A stretch of DNA of 44,977 nucleotides from a virus. Lineage: Duplodnaviria; Caudoviricetes. The position numbers were made by a program, and so were the translations under genes. The notes beneath the pieces were generated by a model. It worked only from the letters and a program-made list of their open reading frames with translations, ran no database searches and had not been told where the DNA came from. Where the stretch lies: positions 1 through 44,977 of IMG/VR virus record IMGVR_UViG_3300004633_000002; one strand, given 5' to 3'. Positions 2,873-10,465 of the stretch are shown piece by piece; positions within the stretch are counted from its first letter, which is position 1, and each line of letters starts with the position of its first letter.

Positions 2873-3150
2873 GACGTACCTCCGTAGACCCCAAAGAAGC
2901 GCCTGCAGGCGCAGCCTTCGACGCGGCAGGCCGTACCGGCTTCGCCGTGGTGGTAGTGGCGGCTCGGGCCGTGGCCGCACAGGCAGCGGCGCGGGTTGTC
3001 AGCAGGCGTTTCCTGCTGCATGTCCTGCCAGGCTGCTTTGAGCTTGGTCAGGACCACCAGCGCATCGTGGTTGTGGCCGCTGGTGACGTGCCAGATGGCG
3101 TCGTTGATGAGGTCGAATGCCCGCGCCTGGGCGTCGGTGGTAGTGGACAA
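2869..3150 (-). CDS. Hypothetical protein with C-terminal CxCxH..H..C..CxC zinc-binding motif
   Basis: CLCGHGPSRH...CRVEGCAC; TTG start preceded by the conserved AGGAGAGTAGTTCC RBS motif. Confidence 0.75.
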   Translation of the reverse strand: MSTTTDAQARAFDLINDAIWHVTSGHNHDALVVLTKLKAAWQDMQQETPADNPRRCLCGHGPSRHYHHGEAGTACRVEGCACRRFFGVYGGTS

Positions 3151-3195: not shown

Positions 3196-4497
3196 CTAGG
3201 CGGCCGAGGCCTGGGCGATGAGTTCACCCAGGCCTCGGAACGCGGGGCTGATAACCGATTGGCCGAGGACCTCGTGAGCCTTCTTCTGGCTCAGGCCTTC
3301 GACCAGGGCGGGCGGGATGCCCTTGATGGCGGCGTGCTCGGCCGCCGTGAACAGGCGGGCCATGCCCGGCCGGGTCGGATGCGCCAGGCGCACGTCGCAC
3401 GAGCCACCCTTCTGGTAGCCACGCCGCAGCGTGGGGACGCTGGTGGCGTCGGCCTGCAGCACGCGGCGGCCTCGGCTGAAGCCGTTGCCGTTGGCCGCAT
3501 CGCGCGCGGCCTTGCGCTGCATGGCTGCCAGCGACTTCCAGCCACCAGCTTTGGCGTCGACGATCTCGCCTAGCGTGGTGTGCTCGCGGCGTGGCTGGAG
3601 GCTGGCCAGGTCGACGTCCAGGCCGCGTGTGACGGCCAGCAGGACCCAGCGCTTGCGGGCTTCGAGCGACCAGGCCGCGCCGTCGACGATGGCCTCGTGG
3701 ACCACGTATCCGAAGCGGCGCAGCCGGGCGCGGATGATGTTGGCGGTGGCGCTGGATGCGTACTCCGGCACGTTCTCCAGCAGGACCACGGCCGGCTGGG
3801 TGGCGCGGATGATTTCGAGGAAGCTCACGGCCAGGTCGGCCGTGGCGTCCTCGTCCTCCTGGCGTTTGAGGCCTTTTTTGGCCTTGCCCGCGCGGCTAGC
3901 TGAGACGCACGGCAGGCCGGCCTCGATGACGTCGACGGTGCCCAGGGCGTTCGGATCGACGTTGCCCAGGTCGTACTCGAAGGTGGTGCCGCCGGTTTGC
4001 AGCGGACCATGTTCGAGCGACTGGCCGAGGTAGCTGGAGTCGCGTTCGACCGCCCAGGCCATCTCAGCGTTGCCCAGGCCGCGCAGCAAAGCGTCGGAGG
4101 CTACGCCACCGCCGTGGCAGATCGACCCCAGGCGCAGGCTCTGACCGGTGGCCAGACGCGACTGGAGTCGACCCAGGCGCTCCTGGGTGGCCTGATCGAG
4201 GTGGTGCACGCTGACGTACACGGCGCCGGGTGTGAAGGCCACCTCGACGCGTTCGACGTCACCCAGTTCGCGGGTGATCAGGTCGACGACCGGTCGGCCC
4301 TGCTTGTGGCTGACTTTGTGGTCGCCGCTGGGCGTGAGCCGCAGGGTGAGCACGTCGCCGGCCACGCTTGACTGGTAGCGCACACCGGCGTCGAAGCCGA
4401 TGTCTCGCAGGCGTTTGCCTTCGAGCCACAGGCGTCGACCGCCTTTGTGGGATGACAGCCGGCGTTCGGCTGCATGTGGGAGAATGGCGGGTGCCAC
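3196..4497 (-). CDS. C5 cytosine DNA methyltransferase with extra N-terminal (SymE/AbrB-like) domain
   Basis: Motif I variant SICHGGG, motif IV GLPC, motif VI LLENV, motif VIII RKRW, motif X LGQSV. Confidence 0.88.
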   Translation of the reverse strand: MAPAILPHAAERRLSSHKGGRRLWLEGKRLRDIGFDAGVRYQSSVAGDVLTLRLTPSGDHKVSHKQGRPVVDLITRELGDVERVEVAFTPGAVYVSVHHLDQATQERLGRLQSRLATGQSLRLGSICHGGGVASDALLRGLGNAEMAWAVERDSSYLGQSLEHGPLQTGGTTFEYDLGNVDPNALGTVDVIEAGLPCVSASRAGKAKKGLKRQEDEDATADLAVSFLEIIRATQPAVVLLENVPEYASSATANIIRARLRRFGYVVHEAIVDGAAWSLEARKRWVLLAVTRGLDVDLASLQPRREHTTLGEIVDAKAGGWKSLAAMQRKAARDAANGNGFSRGRRVLQADATSVPTLRRGYQKGGSCDVRLAHPTRPGMARLFTAAEHAAIKGIPPALVEGLSQKKAHEVLGQSVISPAFRGLGELIAQASAA

Positions 4498-4582
4498 GGG
4501 AGACTACTCCTCCTGTTGGGCAATGGGCGGCCTGGTGCTTGATACGCCAGGCCGCCTGGTCTTGTGCTGCGGGGTGAACTCG

Positions 4583-4644
4583 GGCCGGGCTTGCCACCGG
4601 CCTGCCGCATTACGCCCAGGCCTATGCGGCCTGGGTGACTCTGC
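4583..4644 (-). ncRNA. Twister ribozyme A (P5-type permutation); predicted cleavage between 4612 and 4611
   Basis: GCA GA GUC [A-CCCAGGCC/GGCCUGGG-CG] UAA UGC G GC A GGCCGG UGGCAAGC CCGGCC; pseudoknot GUC/GGC; irregular P1 base. Confidence 0.8.
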
Positions 4645-5473
4645 GCTTGAACGACCGCAGCGAGCGGTCTTTTTTGAAGGTGAATCCGAAGCGATCCTCG
4701 ATGGCGATGAGTTCCTCCAGTAGCTCCGGTCGCTGGTCGGCGCCGACCTGCAGGTCCCCGTTGCAAGCGAGGACGCAGAACTGGCACGACAGCCGCTCAT
4801 TGCCGAACACGTACGCGACGTGCAGCGTCCATCCGTCCAGGGCGCCGGCGACGTCGCCGGCCTGGTACTGGCGGCGCCTGCGTCGAAGCTCGATCTCCGA
4901 GTGTCCGCAGGCTGCCAGGACGTCGCCTATCCGCCAGAACAGCAGCGGATGCCACGTCAGTGCAGTTCGCACGGTGTTGTCGATGCGACGCTTTTCCCAG
5001 GCCTTTTTCTTCGACCGGGCGGTCGACTCCTCGGCGCGGATGCCGACGGCGCATACCACGTTCGAGTAGCGTCGCAAGTAGGCGTCGATGGGATCGCGCT
5101 TCATGTCGCTGGTGCAAAAGCGATTCTGGCTATCCGACCAGGGTCGGGCTTGCTTGCCTTGGGCTTGCATGCGCTCACCCCGAGCGATCCAGTGGTCGAC
5201 CATGTCGCGTCCGTCCGAGCGGCGTACCACCACCAGCGGGATGCCGGCCTGGTCGGCCATCTTCTGGACGTGCCCCGGCGTCTGGCGCCACTCGATCCGA
5301 CCCAGGTCGGCGTGGATGGCGAACAGGTCACCCTTCCAGCCACGCTGCTTGTGCAGTGCGACCAGGGCGACCAGCATGGCCTGGGAGTCTTTGCCACCGC
5401 TGATCGAGATGGCGAGTGCCGCACCACCATCGAGTTGAGCCTCGATGGCCGGCGGGAGGGTTACTTGCTTCAC
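4622..5473 (-). CDS. Phosphoadenosine phosphosulfate (PAPS) reductase-family PP-loop protein (DndC-like family)
   Basis: SISGGKDS PP-loop, HADLG.EW, RFCTSDMK..PI, GIRAEES..R and RLSCQFC Fe-S motif. Confidence 0.85.
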   Translation of the reverse strand: MKQVTLPPAIEAQLDGGAALAISISGGKDSQAMLVALVALHKQRGWKGDLFAIHADLGRIEWRQTPGHVQKMADQAGIPLVVVRRSDGRDMVDHWIARGERMQAQGKQARPWSDSQNRFCTSDMKRDPIDAYLRRYSNVVCAVGIRAEESTARSKKKAWEKRRIDNTVRTALTWHPLLFWRIGDVLAACGHSEIELRRRRRQYQAGDVAGALDGWTLHVAYVFGNERLSCQFCVLACNGDLQVGADQRPELLEELIAIEDRFGFTFKKDRSLRSFKRRVTQAA

Positions 5474-5502
5474 TGACTACTCCAGTGAATGCGGGTGAGA
5501 TT

Positions 5503-5561
5503 GACCGGGCTTGTGACCGGTCTGCCGCATTACGCCAGGCCTGGCGGCCTGGTCACTCTGC
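5503..5561 (-). ncRNA. Twister ribozyme B (P5-type permutation); predicted cleavage between 5532 and 5531
   Basis: GCA GA GUG [A-CCAGGCC/GGCCUGG-CG] UAA UGC G GC A GACCGG UCACAAGC CCGGUC; pseudoknot GUG/CAC; irregular P1 base. Confidence 0.8.
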
Positions 5562-5894
5562 GTCTGGGCAGGAGTCGTAGTGAGCCACGATGGCGCCGTG
5601 GCTGGCGCATCCGTTGCAATGTGGAGCGAACTCCACTTCGGATTCCCATTTGCGAACCTGGGCGTCGACTCGACGAGCCAGCGACTTGCGCTTGAACCAG
5701 TCCGGGTCGGCCATCGACCGACCCTGGAGTTCCCAATAGATCAGGCGAGCGTTGTCTTCGAGTTGCTCGTAGGAGCCGCGCAGCGGACTGGGCTTGAATC
5801 CCAGGCGCTGCAGCCGGCTGACCACTTCGTACTCGCCCCAATCGTGTGCCCATTGGAGCCAGGCTTCGCAGACGTCGAATCGGTCGAAGAACAT
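5553..5894 (-). CDS. Hypothetical phage early protein (113 aa, MFFDRFDVCEAW...)
   Basis: ATG at 5894 in a TGATG overlap; C-terminal CxxC..H..C. Confidence 0.75.
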   Translation of the reverse strand: MFFDRFDVCEAWLQWAHDWGEYEVVSRLQRLGFKPSPLRGSYEQLEDNARLIYWELQGRSMADPDWFKRKSLARRVDAQVRKWESEVEFAPHCNGCASHGAIVAHYDSCPDAE

Positions 5895-6103
5895 CAGACC
5901 CCAGCCTCCGCGATCATCTCGTCGAAGATGGCGCAGTTGAGTTCGTGGAATCCGTAGGCGTCGGCCAGGCCGCAATCCGGGCAGGCCTGGCAGCCGCACA
6001 TGACGTTGCCTCGCCCGTCGACCGACCAGTCATCGTCTGAGCCGCATTCGAGGCAGGCGCCTGGAGTGACTGTGCGCCACCCGGTGAACACTGTTGTTGC
6101 CAT
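5894..6103 (-). CDS. Cys-rich small protein (69 aa)
   Basis: CLEC, CGCQACPDC and HELNC; ATG at 6103 after the conserved RBS hairpin. Confidence 0.75.
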   Translation of the reverse strand: MATTVFTGWRTVTPGACLECGSDDDWSVDGRGNVMCGCQACPDCGLADAYGFHELNCAIFDEMIAEAGV

Positions 6104-6132
6104 TGGAACTACTCTCCAATGCGGATGAAATT

Positions 6133-6188
6133 GACCGGGCTTGGAACCGGTCGGCCGCATTACACCGGCTGCGGCCGGTGTCCTCTGC
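6133..6188 (-). ncRNA. Twister ribozyme C (P5-type permutation); predicted cleavage between 6162 and 6161
   Basis: GCA GA GGA [CACCGGC/GCCGGUG] UAA UGC G GC C GACCGG UUCCAAGC CCGGUC; pseudoknot GGA/UCC. Confidence 0.92.
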
Positions 6189-6189
6189 G

Positions 6190-6486
6190 CTAGGCGATGA
6201 GCGTGCCCATCACCACGTATTCGTAGTCATCCATCCAGCGGACGAGCACGCCGCTGAAGAATGAGTCCGACTGGAAGGCATGCCAGCGACCAGGGGCGTT
6301 TGGTGGGACGTTCTCAGTGAAGTCGCCCAGGTCGTACGTGACACCCTTGAAGCGCACGAACTCGCGTTCGTCGAGTTCAGACTCGCTCAGGTAATCGAAC
6401 TGCTTGAGTTCGGCCGGGGTGAGTTCGTAGCCCCGTACGACTGGACGTGGCTGGTTGTTGGTAATGACGGTAATTTCGGTCGACAT
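6190..6486 (-). CDS. Hypothetical phage early protein (98 aa, MSTEITVITNNQPR...)
   Basis: YELT..E...FDYL, F.FKG..YDLGDF and SDSFFSGVLV pattern recalled from phage early regions; ATG at 6486 with GGGAG RBS. Confidence 0.8.
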   Translation of the reverse strand: MSTEITVITNNQPRPVVRGYELTPAELKQFDYLSESELDEREFVRFKGVTYDLGDFTENVPPNAPGRWHAFQSDSFFSGVLVRWMDDYEYVVMGTLIA

Positions 6487-6517
6487 CGTTCTACTCCCGA
6501 TGAATACGGTTTGAATT

Positions 6518-6573
6518 GGCTGGGCTTGCAACCAGCCTGCCGCATTTCACCGGCCGGGGCCGGTGTGCTCTGC
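6518..6573 (-). ncRNA. Twister ribozyme D (P5-type permutation, A^A site); predicted cleavage between 6547 and 6546
   Basis: GCA GA GCA [CACCGGC/GCCGGUG] AAA UGC G GC A GGCUGG UUGCAAGC CCAGCC; pseudoknot GCA/UGC. Confidence 0.88.
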
Positions 6574-6575
6574 GC

Positions 6576-6842
6576 TCAGTCCTCCCAGGATTCGCAATCG
6601 TCGAAGCAGGGTCCGCTGACTTCGATGTAGTCCCAGAACGTGCCGGGCAGCGACTCGCTCTCCCGAGCGATCCAGAAGCCCTGCTTGCGCGATCCCTTGA
6701 CTCGCTCGCCAGCGTCCCGGTACTGGTCGACGTGCCACATGGCACCGGCCAGTGCGGCCGACTTTGTCGGGTAGACGTCGTTGGAGTTCGGAATGTATCC
6801 GCCGGCCAGACCGGCGATGCAGTGAAAGTGCTTGGTGCTCAC
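6576..6842 (-). CDS. Hypothetical phage early protein (88 aa)
   Basis: GTG start after the AGGAGAGTAGTTCCT motif; stop lies 2 nt before twister D. Confidence 0.75.
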   Translation of the reverse strand: MSTKHFHCIAGLAGGYIPNSNDVYPTKSAALAGAMWHVDQYRDAGERVKGSRKQGFWIARESESLPGTFWDYIEVSGPCFDDCESWED

Positions 6843-6878
6843 TAGGAACTACTCTCCTTGAGTTGTGTTGGATGGGGA

Positions 6879-7139
6879 CTAGGCCAGCAATTCGACTGGC
6901 CAGAATCCAAAGTCCGACCCATCACCGGGGTGGGTACCGAAGTACGTGCCTTCTGGAGCCAGAGTGTCCAGGGCATCGATGAGTTCGTCGACGAGTTCGT
7001 CTGCCTCGGCCACGTTGTAGCCATAGGCTTCGTAGTCCTGGCGCAGCCGGTGGCTGGCTGGGAGTTCGGCCACGAAGGCCTGGATGAGGTGATCTGCCAA
7101 CAGAGTCCCGTGGCTCACGGTACCGATTGAGTACGTCAT
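6879..7139 (-). CDS. Acidic hypothetical phage early protein (86 aa)
   Basis: GTVSHGT...LI.AF and APEGTYFGTHPGDGSDFGFW motifs recalled from phage hypotheticals; conserved RBS motif. Confidence 0.8.
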   Translation of the reverse strand: MTYSIGTVSHGTLLADHLIQAFVAELPASHRLRQDYEAYGYNVAEADELVDELIDALDTLAPEGTYFGTHPGDGSDFGFWPVELLA

Positions 7140-7172
7140 TTGGAACTACTCTCCAAAATGCGGAGTAGGTTT

Positions 7173-7243
7173 GCCTGGGCTTGTGACCAGGCTGCCGCAT
7201 TACACCCGGCCAGCGTTTCTTCTGGACCATGGGTGCACTCTGC
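7173..7243 (-). ncRNA. Twister ribozyme E (P5-type permutation); predicted cleavage between 7202 and 7201
   Basis: GCA GA GUG [CACCC...GGGUG] UAA UGC G GC A GCCUGG UCACAAGC CCAGGC; pseudoknot GUG/CAC. Confidence 0.9.
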
Positions 7244-7741
7244 GAGTACGTGATTCAACCGGCAGGCATTGGACTGGTTACCAACGAGTTCTGGTGGGAC
7301 GTCCATTTCCTGGCTCGAATCCGGGCGACTAGCGCACTAGGACCATACTGGCGGATTCGATGCTGTCAGTGAACGAGCTTCTGAACTACACCCGGAGCCT
7401 TCCCCGTACTTGTGTTGTGTTGTGTGAGTCCCCCTGATCCAATCAGCATTAGGCTTGTCTGGCCTGCGACACCGGACTTGGTTCGGAGCCCGCCGTCCTC
7501 CCCTGGCCACCCACGTTTCAACTTCGTGGTACTGGTTTGGGACTTGGCGCGGTCGATGGTGTAGCTGATGCAGTCCGTCAGGGGACTACGTTTGCCAGCG
7601 TTCGGTCAGCGACTAGGGCCAGGTTCAGATCCTGGGCTTACCGTCTTGGCCACTGCTTACTTGCGTATTCGCTCAGCGTCTCTGCCCGGGGCGTCCGGTG
7701 AGGATCGAGTCCTTTGTGGTGTCGGTCGTTTCCCGCCGACA
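7244..7741 (-). ncRNA. Putative ~500-nt multi-domain structured leader/ncRNA
   Basis: No credible ORF; long-range helices 7578-7587/7427-7437 and 7405-7410/7245-7250 separated by a CAACA-repeat linker (7411-7426); 5' hairpin at 7720-7741. Confidence 0.55.
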
Positions 7742-7746
7742 ACGTC

Positions 7747-7775
7747 AGTAAACCACAACGATTGTGGGTTGTCTA
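7747..7775 (-). promoter_or_regulatory. Sigma70-like promoter of the leftward operon with a palindromic operator in the spacer
   Basis: -35 TAGACA (7775-7770), 17-bp spacer, TGn-TTTACT extended -10 (7752-7747); CCACAA-N3-TTGTGG palindrome at 7753-7767; AT-rich upstream. Confidence 0.6.
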
Positions 7776-7924
7776 TAAACAAGGGACTAGCGAATTGCTA
7801 AATATTTGTAAACGCCCTGGGCACTTCGAGCGCTCTGCGGCCGGGACACCAGCGTCAGATGCGAGCGAGTTCGGGAGGCGACGTCGACTGGGAGGCCGGC
7901 TGGACGTCCAGGGCTGACAGGCCA

Positions 7925-8310: not shown

Positions 8311-8379
8311 ATCGCGGCGAATGGGCGTCTCAACTCCAGTTGGTGTTGAGACTTGACGCTTGCGGTCATAATTGGGAGC

Positions 8380-8871
8380 ATGCCGACGAAGACGCCCCAG
8401 CCGCGTGTGTACAAGAAGCGCAATCTGCAGCAGCCGTGGGAAGCCGAACCGATAGCCCCGCCGCCCAGGACGCGGCGGATTCCGGAGGGGCAATTGCAGC
8501 GGCGCTATCTGGAGGCGCTGCCGAAGTTCTTCACGGTATCGGCGGCGCTGACGTCGGCGGGTGCGGACGCCAGCCAGTTACGCCGCTGGCGTGAGACGGA
8601 CGGGGCGTTCTTAGTGGCCGAGCAGGACGCCCGCAATGCGCTAGCCGACAAGCTCGAAGCGGAGGCGGTGCGGCGTGCGTTCAAGGGGGTGCGCGTGCCG
8701 GTGTATCAGGGTGGGCTGCTGGCCGGGCACATGACCCAGTACTCGGACCAGTTGCTGGTGCTGCTGCTCAAGGCCATGCGCCCCGAGAAGTTCAGGGAGC
8801 GCGCCGAGATCCAGATGACCCAGCCCATAGTGAAGGTGGTGGCCGGCTTCGACCCGTCTCAAGCACTCTAA
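8380..8871 (+). CDS. terS: Terminase small subunit
   Basis: D.LE.EA.RRA..G...PVYQ.G...YSD.LL..LLKA.RPEKFRER pattern; directly upstream of terL. Confidence 0.8.
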   Translation: MPTKTPQPRVYKKRNLQQPWEAEPIAPPPRTRRIPEGQLQRRYLEALPKFFTVSAALTSAGADASQLRRWRETDGAFLVAEQDARNALADKLEAEAVRRAFKGVRVPVYQGGLLAGHMTQYSDQLLVLLLKAMRPEKFRERAEIQMTQPIVKVVAGFDPSQAL

Positions 8872-9055
8872 GCGGTGGCGTACGTGCTGAGCCGCGAGGC
8901 GAACCCTCTCTTGGTACTTCTCTGTGTCAAGGGCCCCATCGGAAACAGGCGGAATCTGACCGCCCCACTGGGGTCAAATGTGACATGCCGGTGACGTCTT
9001 CCAAAATGCCGGCAGATTGGTGCTATTCTGGGCGCCAATGGACGGGCCGTCCTGA

Positions 9056-10465
9056 GTGGCCACCTCCCTGCGTCCGCAGCGATCTGGAGCGCGGCGCGGG
9101 GAGGTGCTTAGCGGGATAACCGCTGAGGTTCAATCGGAAATAGTCCGCACTCTGCCGCAGCAGTCGGCATACATGCCGTTTGGGGCTGCTCAGACGCTGA
9201 TGGAGTATCGCGGCAGGGAGGTCCTGCTGGCTGGACCGGCGGGCACGGGCAAGTCCAGGGCGGCGTTGGAGAAGCTTTCGTTCGTGGCCTATCGGCGGCC
9301 GATTCGGGCCGCCATCGTGCGGAAGGTCAGGAAGTCGCTGACCCAGGCGGCGCTGGTCACGTACGAGAAGAAGGTGCTGCCGGAGCCCTCGGGGGTGCGC
9401 TTCTGGACCGAGGATCAGGAGTACCGCTACCCCAACGGGGCCATCGTCGCCCTGGCCGGGCTCGACGACCCCGAGAAGGTCAAGTCAACGGAGTTCGATC
9501 TGATTTATGTCCAAGAAGCCACCGAACTTGATCAACTGGATTGGGAGTTGCTGGTGTCTCGACTCCGCAACGGGGTCTTGTCCTATCAGCAGATCATCGC
9601 CGATTGCAACCCCGCCGATCCTTACCACTGGCTCAAGCAACGTTGTGACCGTGGTGAGTGCCTCCTGCTCGATACACGGCACGAAGACAACCCTCTACTG
9701 TTTGACCACCAGGCAGGAGCTTGGACCGAGTTCGGCGAGCAGTACCTGAAGACCCTCGACACCCTGACCGGTTACCTGTACCAGCGCCTGCGGCTGGGCC
9801 AGTGGGTGGCCGCCGACGGGATGTTCTTCACCGAGTGGAACCCCGAGGTGCATGTGGTGCAGGGCTTCGACATTCCGGAGCATTGGCCCAGGTGGACCTC
9901 GACGGACTACGGCTTCGCGGCGCCGTGGTGCACGTTGTGGTTTGCCCGCGATCCCGAGGGCAATCGGCCGGTGTACGTGTACCGCGAGCGTTACGCGGTG
10001 GAGGTGCGCGATGAAGAACAAGCTGAGATCATTTCATCCGCGAGCGAAGGCGAGCGGATATTGGCGAATGTTTTGGACCCGAGCATGTTCAACGCTCGGA
10101 CGGAGCAGAACAAGCCCTCCATCGCCCAGGTTTACGCATCTGGCGGAATTTCCAATATTGTTCAGGGTTTCAACAACCGCCGCACCGGTTGGAGCATCAT
10201 CCGCCGTGCACTCGCCATTCCAGACTCAGGCACTTCGGAACCTGGGGCTGGACTTCCTCGGTTGCGGATCTTTGCGGACGCGTGCCCGAATCTGGAGCGG
10301 ACACTACCTGCAATGGTGAGAGATCCGCTCGATCCGGAGGACGTGGCCGACAAGCTGCACGGCAAGAAGACCGAGGACCACGCCCCGGATGCATTGCGCT
10401 ATGGCATGGCCATCGAGGCCGGCCCGAGCGCCGACGAGACGGTCGGCTCGGTGAGTTGGGGCTGA
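9056..10465 (+). CDS. terL: Terminase large subunit
   Basis: Walker A GPAGTGKS, Walker B IYVQEA, motif III DCNP, nuclease motifs TDYG and DHAPDALRY. Confidence 0.95.
   Translation: MATSLRPQRSGARRGEVLSGITAEVQSEIVRTLPQQSAYMPFGAAQTLMEYRGREVLLAGPAGTGKSRAALEKLSFVAYRRPIRAAIVRKVRKSLTQAALVTYEKKVLPEPSGVRFWTEDQEYRYPNGAIVALAGLDDPEKVKSTEFDLIYVQEATELDQLDWELLVSRLRNGVLSYQQIIADCNPADPYHWLKQRCDRGECLLLDTRHEDNPLLFDHQAGAWTEFGEQYLKTLDTLTGYLYQRLRLGQWVAADGMFFTEWNPEVHVVQGFDIPEHWPRWTSTDYGFAAPWCTLWFARDPEGNRPVYVYRERYAVEVRDEEQAEIISSASEGERILANVLDPSMFNARTEQNKPSIAQVYASGGISNIVQGFNNRRTGWSIIRRALAIPDSGTSEPGAGLPRLRIFADACPNLERTLPAMVRDPLDPEDVADKLHGKKTEDHAPDALRYGMAIEAGPSADETVGSVSWG

Follow-up and report, generated by a model that had tools for sequence, protein, structure and literature searches.

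What becomes of the 5′ end that a self-cleaving ribozyme leaves on a phage messenger RNA? The question is raised by a 44,977-base record that is one contig of a tailed phage (IMG/VR record IMGVR_UViG_3300004633_000002; this whole stretch is called the window below). The region concerned is a leftward run of small genes, the last open reading frames (ORFs) of which encode PAPS-reductase-family and C5-methyltransferase-family proteins, and it contains five predicted type-P5 twister ribozymes. Behind each ribozyme stands a short strand, CCGCAUU or a variant of it, which is complementary to the 5′ end that self-cleavage would create. Judged from the sequences of the window and its relatives, this downstream capture strand (hereafter the element) is real and conserved. 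It would serve as a second, downstream partner for the segment that forms the 3′ strand of helix P2, and after self-cleavage it likely binds the 5′ end thus set free.

Type-P5 twister ribozymes of the window

Five matches to the Twister-P5 family (Rfam RF02684) were found on the minus strand, all covering model positions 1-58 and scoring 45.5-59.7 bits, with a gathering score of 37.6; no other Rfam family rose above threshold in the window. They are located at 7175..7244 (50.2 bits; predicted cleavage U7202/A7201), 6520..6574 (50.7 bits; A6547/A6546, with A instead of U at position -1), 6135..6189 (59.7 bits; U6162/A6161), 5505..5562 (58.9 bits; U5532/A5531) and 4585..4645 (45.5 bits; U4612/A4611), the last overlapping the end of the upstream ORF. 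The predicted new 5′ ends, by which the copies are named below, are the A residues at 7201, 6546, 6161, 5531 and 4611, and all of them begin AAUGCGGC.

Every copy has the 5′ strand of P2 and GAG upstream, a closed P1, the 3′ strand of P2 and P4, and is open at P5; no P5 stem between the flanks is evident by eye in the window copies. The pseudoknots T1 and T2 are able to pair in all five, with the T1 codes TG/CA, CA/TG, GA/TC, TG/CA and TC/GG and an invariant T2 (GC with an AAGC loop). Adjacent window copies (7244-4585) all differ in T1 code, unlike relatives whose copies nearly all have TG/CA. The active-site adenines A1 and A2 are present in 5/5 copies, and the -1 base is U in four and A in the 6546 copy. 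By these sequence features the five copies are typical representatives of an established ribozyme class, and self-cleavage is predicted for them. The type-P5 class is said to go back to Roth et al. 2014. Changes at the -1 position are broadly tolerated, according to an excerpt of PMC11662667.

The strand complementary to the cleaved end

The elements, all on the minus strand, begin 10-12 nucleotides (nt) past P4 in all five copies. The sequence CCGCAUU occupies 7157..7163 (11 nt past P4), 6118..6124 and 5488..5494, the variant CCGUAUU, in which a G-U pair is kept, 6503..6509, and a short form, CCGCA, 4568..4572. The initial annotation had proposed these five complements of the new 5′ end, and all were found in place; its view that they lie outside the twister consensus also holds, the Rfam model stopping at P4. 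The sequence CCGCATT occurs four times on the whole minus strand, and three of these occurrences are elements. Dinucleotide shuffling gave p values of 0.003, 0.003, 0.007 and 0.000 for the four 7-mers and 0.31 for the 5-mer at 4572, which is not significant alone. Pairing of the element with the 3′ region of 16S rRNA was considered and dropped, the polarity being wrong.

Relatives were collected by a terminase search blind to the element, which gave 22 loci; six of these proved in Rfam scans to carry Twister-P5 ribozymes, 23 copies in all. A ribozyme pattern had brought in L376, another stretch of a contig that matches by terminase, with three further copies. Three L373 copies, on a contig not linked to a terminase, and one degenerate L385 copy below the Rfam threshold were left out. 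The clade set thus comprises 31 copies on eight contigs (the window and seven relatives), copies within one phage being paralogues, so that counts are not independent. Each copy was scored by the longest helix to its own 5′ end within 35 nt past P4, a G-U pair counting half.

Of the 31 copies, 26, 19 and 10 reached scores of at least 5, 6 and 7; the corresponding shuffles averaged 6.8, 1.8 and 0.4 copies, with maxima of 13, 7 and 2. The same scoring further into the genes gave 9, 4 and 2 of 30 copies, and among ribozyme-less or hammerhead-headed starts of the same phages, a screen that includes doubtful starts, at least 5 was reached in 10/27 and at least 6 in 0/27. Absence beside homologous twisters in related phages had been named earlier as a finding that would overturn the refolding proposal; the element was found there, with a score of at least 6 in 19/31. 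The tolerance of G-U pairs claimed for the 6509 variant is seen across the set, in which CCGUA, GCCGUA and CCGCG still pair via G-U; the variants CCGCU and CCGCC lose the pair. Opposite positions 1, 2, 3 and 7 a pairing base is found in 15, 21, 28 and 26 of the 31 copies; positions 4-6 are paired through the way the register is defined and carry no weight as evidence.

Two layouts were distinguished. The element is linear, at an offset of 10-12, in 18/31 copies, and lies further out in 13. About 12 of the latter, as the folds were read, have it inside the apical loop of a hairpin of its own or spanning that loop, and the stems differ from copy to copy. Such a loop would favour pairing with a free end. 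The loop-type copies were judged from their sequence, as ViennaRNA models neither pseudoknots nor pairing between a loop and an end. A pattern search for the loop form returned 40 loci, four of them with twisters (on three contigs, all already known) and the rest chance matches. As a separate observation, the homologue of the window 7139 gene in L385 (gene start 7670) is preceded by a degenerate twister without the 5′ strand of P2 and by a three-base remnant of the element.

Covariation was sought among twisters with C at position 3. A scan for these gave 25 loci; once two duplicate pairs had been merged and one truncated copy set aside, they included nine different P5 twisters that have CGCG as P2 and can be read downstream. 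Opposite C3 there is G in 4/9 copies (CCGCGU, CCGCG, CCACGUU and CCGUGUU, on three contigs) and A in 0/9, and opposite U3 there is A in 26/30. At positions 4-5, nine loci with variation yielded no usable P5 twister, and in a viral scan for other bases at position 6, 114/122 hits were type-P1 twisters. The covariation, confined to one position and few lineages, is suggestive to good and not conclusive; with the conservation described above, it indicates that pairing with the cut end is probably under selection.

Predicted capture of the freed 5′ end

Fold prediction suggests that in the precursor native P2 forms with the upstream CGCA, and the element is parked in the hairpin of the ribosome-binding site (RBS) or in a loop of its own. 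Owing to the P5 permutation, the native P2 partner would leave with the upstream product on cleavage, and eight bases would be left unpaired. The freed AAU may then act as a toehold, the element displacing the old 4-bp partner with a helix of 5-8 bp, in which the active-site bases A1/A2 and the first T2 base would be included as well. This would separate the products and keep the core from re-forming, and the processed phage mRNAs would begin with a paired stem, not with an exposed single strand. For products ending just after the start codon, a local folding model gave the capture helix probabilities of 0.85, 0.92, 0.45, 0.95 and 0.98 in the five copies. All in all, pairing between element and cut end probably forms after cleavage. 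The flush 5′-terminal hairpin proposed in the initial annotation needs one correction: the helix is predicted in the product, and its terminal A-U pair is predicted to fray (probability 0.00-0.48), so the end is only nearly flush.

The initial annotation had further suggested that the element competes with P2 before cleavage and tunes it, and so sets the fraction or rate of cleavage. The two folds are indeed close in energy when pseudoknots are left uncounted, and flanking sequence is reported to alter ribozyme behaviour (PMC11662667). However, even with the two pseudoknots left out of the sum, four of the five copies prefer native P2, by 0.5-2.4 kcal/mol, and the 4611 copy alone disfavours it (by 0.8 kcal/mol). 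The ribozyme is also complete 10-12 nt before the element is transcribed, and from within a loop the element would be in a poor position to invade a strand that is already paired internally. Tuning is disfavoured by these points, and as the function of the element it is most improbable.

The purpose that we propose for capture is to shield the 5′-OH end from 5′-end-dependent decay such as that by RNase J. Parts of PMC3997798 and PMC10810187 describe degradation of the 5′-OH product of the glmS ribozyme by RNase J1. Protection is preferred because P5 products would lose their P2 partner, type-P1 products keep it and hammerhead products start with stem I, while a 5′-OH end is an entry point for RNase J1 after glmS cleavage. 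By analogy with glmS such protection is plausible, and capture with end protection as its main purpose is somewhat better than an even choice.

The element might instead mainly insulate the array, releasing the products and hiding the 5′ end from the next CGCA strand, from a hybrid ribozyme formed across one gene unit and from ligation into a circle. The longest elements do occur in multi-copy arrays, and in the five multi-copy relatives neighbours nearly all share the T1 code, which makes hybrids possible. Yet neighbours in the window differ in T1 code, already hindering hybrids, and their elements rank with the strongest; the effect of being in an array is inseparable from that of the clade, and ligation by small ribozymes was seen in some cases only, according to passages of PMC6765202. 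Insulation as the main role is accordingly quite unlikely.

Several observations weigh against capture of the end for its protection. The structure is predicted throughout. When the 3′ end is extended the coding sequence competes, and in four of the five copies some of the longer products have a helix probability of 0.00-0.05; for the 6161 copy another folding run gave 0.00-0.12. Kinship of phages and copies means that element counts are not independent events, and the long element is specific to the clade: a score of at least 6 was found in 4/77 phage copies outside it (shuffle 1.6, maximum 6) and in 7/81 copies from bacterial genomes (shuffle 3.6, maximum 9). Among the C3 copies, three have an uncompensated element and two have none. 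UGCA-type P5 twisters (25 metagenome loci reduced to 14 non-redundant copies and, after removal of one type-P1-like copy, to 13) show no enrichment of matches to their own end, with a score of at least 4 in 1/13. A ribozyme-less window gene (start 3150) has CCGCA ahead of its RBS hairpin. An engineered twister in a 5′ untranslated region (UTR) in E. coli left mRNA and protein levels unchanged on cleavage unless the Shine-Dalgarno (SD) sequence was held, as an excerpt of PMC5052635 states.

The ribozyme-less gene at 3150 (93 aa; 3172-3150, minus strand) carries CCGCAG before the RBS hairpin, and a partly homologous gene of L381 (copy 4264) has a twister and the same element. The window gene may have lost its ribozyme.

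Origin of the element

The short CGCA core is wider among phages than the long element, being found in 30/77 phage twisters outside the clade with 8.9 expected. In a set of 91 non-redundant phage P5 twisters, 41 have CGCA after P4 (shuffle 12.3, maximum 21), a frequency second only to that of GGAG. This CGCA continues as GAG, in the manner of the native strand, in 7/41. The base before native CGCAGAG is C in 0/87 copies, and before downstream CGCA it is C in 15/41; U follows downstream CGCA in 17/41. With its extensions the downstream strand also covers the adenines of the active site and the first T2 base, and so it cannot be catalytic. The element probably descends from the 3′ P2 strand of a type-P1 ancestor, lengthened later in this clade.

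Such an origin raises the possibility that the element is a neutral relic: type-P1 twisters have a P2 strand after P4, and it would have been carried along through permutation and copying. The copies that run on as GAG, the similar place of the P2 strand in type-P1 twisters and the enrichment of the short core outside the clade all fit this. Against it, the 5′ C and 3′ UU extensions are foreign to the native strand, and variants that keep pairing through G-U or by compensation, as well as retention of the element in the loops of unrelated stems, would not be expected of a relic. For this clade the neutral reading is largely refuted already, and overall it is very improbable.

Single P5 twisters were also seen in many copies in Acidobacteriota genomes (L272-L372, several contigs exceeding 1 Mb), with a shared P1 loop and a position before small genes; most of them lack the long element.

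Translational effects in a subset of genes

Where the element overlaps the RBS hairpin, as in three of the five window copies, capture is predicted also to loosen the SD and the start codon, a secondary, gene-specific effect. At 6101..6121 (minus strand) sequence and fold agree on a hairpin, CAUUGGAG-AGUAG-UUCCAAUG, that includes the SD and the AUG at 6103 and has CAUU of the element as its base. The initial annotation had assigned the same hairpin to the 7201 copy as well. There the sequence at 7160-7137 reads CAUUUUGGAG-AGUAG-UUCCAAAUG: this predicted hairpin (7137..7160, minus strand; GGAG at 7154-7151, AUG at 7139) overlaps the element and is bulged, and the predicted lock is a rival helix between 7168-7163 and 7151-7146. 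A third overlap had been missed: UU at 5489-5488 extends the RBS hairpin 5489-5469 by pairing with the AA after GUG. At the other two copies there is no overlap, the 6503..6509 element adjoining the RBS hairpin 6502-6484 and the short 4568..4572 element having its SD 54 nt beyond.

On freeing the 5′ end, the predicted cost of opening the region from SD to start drops by 3.6, 0.6, 5.2, 3.6 and 0.3 kcal/mol in the 7201, 6546, 6161, 5531 and 4611 copies, respectively, that is, from 8.9 to 5.3 (7201), 9.1 to 4.0 (6161) and 11.2 to 7.6 kcal/mol (5531) in the three with overlap. Shuffled 5′ ends matched the gain in 0/40 cases for each of these three, and the unlocked costs are near those of ribozyme-less window genes (7.5 and 6.5 kcal/mol). 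The main job of the element could therefore be that of a translation switch triggered by cleavage, the element keeping SD and start codon locked up to the moment at which the new 5′ end withdraws it. Similar overlaps exist in L381, L391 and L397; a compensated element in L459 is, from its sequence, still able to pair with the start codon via G-U; and engineered twisters turn translation on in this way by 5- to ~100-fold, according to excerpted text of PMC5052635.

However, across all 31 copies the gain is at least 1.5 kcal/mol in 8, all of them linear, and below 0.5 in 14; it reaches 1.5 kcal/mol in none of the 13 further-out copies. In a positional control, in which six bases were withdrawn at the same distances in 12 twister-less RBS hairpins, 42% of 192 trials gave at least 1.5 kcal/mol, which is about as frequent as among twister copies with a nearby SD (7/16; mean 2.3, control 1.55). 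The four largest twister effects (4.1-6.7) stand at or above the top of the control range (maximum 5.6). Overlap also comes cheaply, as CAUU complements any A-AUG. No ligand-sensing part was found by the Rfam scan of the window, so a switch would be constitutive, although there may be an uncatalogued input. The earlier proposal that cleavage turns translation on is thus retained as a prediction for three of the five window copies and is weaker as a general rule. Switching is credible for a few genes, as a predicted side effect or a trait of a subset and not the conserved core, and as the main job of the element it is unlikely.

A combined form is also conceivable: a natural cleavage-gated cassette in which each twister cuts the early transcript of the phage and the freed 5′ end, acting as a toehold, unlocks the RBS hairpin and at the same time seals itself against exonucleases, so that only processed, stabilised mRNAs are translated. 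We regard this as rather doubtful. If true, it would be a natural ON-switch in which the cut end of the ribozyme itself drives the exchange of strands, the reverse of what glmS does, and a portable 60-nt module for any gene.

A side observation concerns the loops of the RBS hairpins, whose sequence is repeated within a phage and differs between phages, with or without a ribozyme, in early genes: AGUAG in the window, GGCAA in L381 and L391, GAGACAU in L397 and UACAC in L392, L385 having been examined too. Such sites occur in the window at 7154-7142, 6857-6845, 6117-6105, 5483-5474, 4513-4500 and 3163-3151 (minus strand). By its sequence, the repeated loop looks like a candidate site for a phage-specific RNA-binding regulator.

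Genomic setting and ribozyme variants

The twister-headed run, entirely on the minus strand, comprises an 86-aa ORF (6879..7139) with a weak match to phrog_29605, a family of unknown function; an 88-aa ORF (6576..6859) with the same RBS hairpin and neither ribozyme nor element, which serves as an internal control; a 98-aa ORF (6190..6486) and two small ORFs of 69 and 113 aa (5553..6103), all three without a family match; a 283-aa PAPS-reductase-family ORF with a GUG start (4622..5473; PF01507, phrog_424); and a 433-aa C5 DNA-methyltransferase-family ORF (3196..4497; PF00145, phrog_116). Upstream of the first ribozyme, about 550 nt (7250-7800, minus strand) contain no convincing gene and no Rfam match, and include an inverted repeat at 7300-7375. 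A promoter scan was uninformative (2 sites, 1.0 expected).

Genes for the terminase subunits are located at 8353-10465, and the best-matching terminases of cultured phages are less than 60% identical to that of the window. No informative names pointing to a host were found among the protein relatives of the window. The sequence occurs in six soil metagenome DNA runs, which are all of the listed carriers; contigs from three soil DNA runs over 4400-7900, whose cover was fragmentary, gave no usable variation of the element within the species.

Between the last twister and the methyltransferase RBS lies a strong hairpin (4567-4515, minus strand), which resembles the P1 arms of the fourth and fifth copies and may be a degenerate sixth one. 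Similar spacer hairpins come after twister copies in L381 and L391. The same two relatives contain twisters in which the T2 pseudoknot is altered on both sides, GG with an AACC loop replacing GC with AAGC (L381 7108-7166 and 7924-7979; L391 7976-8033 and 8825-8895). In L450 (~200-330) and L460 (~210-330), type-P5 twisters have a large P1 insertion, with about 90-100 nt from the P2 5′ strand to the cleavage site.

Comparison with known systems

Twisters located near phage genes are known from parts of PMC6765202, which calls the role of self-cleaving ribozymes near genes of bacteria and phages largely elusive and treats the processing of polycistronic transcripts as no more than a suggestion. 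No description of a downstream strand capturing the cleaved end of a twister was found by full-text literature searches, whose hits were judged by title and start of abstract and which leave most subscription papers outside; the capture strand is apparently undescribed. A conserved strand able to pair only with an end made by the cut would mean that selection acts on what becomes of the 3′ product. As a 7-nt handle with natural compensatory alleles, the element makes stability versus translation directly testable. If confirmed, it would also supply a small building block for insulators or switches in hosts whose 5′ exonucleases would otherwise have access to mRNAs cut by ribozymes.

All five window copies pass the gathering score of RF02684 with P1, P2, P4 and both pseudoknots, and they differ from the family in what follows, the model ending at P4 without a downstream strand complementary to the cleaved 5′ end. 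The 3′ product of a type-P1 twister keeps its P2 partner after P4, its cleaved end being paired in cis, and the element would restore that state. Unlike the type-P1 strand, however, the downstream strand of the window lacks the GAG and T1 continuation, cannot form an active site and reaches across A1/A2 and the first T2 base.

Type II hammerheads (RF02276) head the same kind of RBS hairpin in the sister phages L386 (2983-3048 and ~2090-2030) and L389 (7813-7875), at gene starts, and one such hammerhead-headed gene has a twister-headed homologue in L385. Type II hammerheads at phage gene starts in similar contexts are mentioned in an excerpt of PMC8782182. The hammerhead product starts with stem I, so a paired end is built into that ribozyme, whereas the P5 twister needs an extra strand.

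Engineered twister and hammerhead switches that sequester the SD, as outlined in sections of PMC5052635, resemble the window in that self-cleavage frees an occluded SD, which is predicted here in 3/5 copies. The arrangement here is natural, holds the SD in a separate hairpin that would be loosened by strand exchange, has no aptamer and concerns a subset of copies. With the glmS/RNase J1 system, as far as passages in PMC3997798 and PMC10810187 describe it, the window shares self-cleavage in the 5′ UTR that leaves an mRNA with a 5′-OH. No ligand dependence is seen in the sequence here, and the predicted outcome is the opposite: the end would be sealed instead of being offered to an exonuclease.

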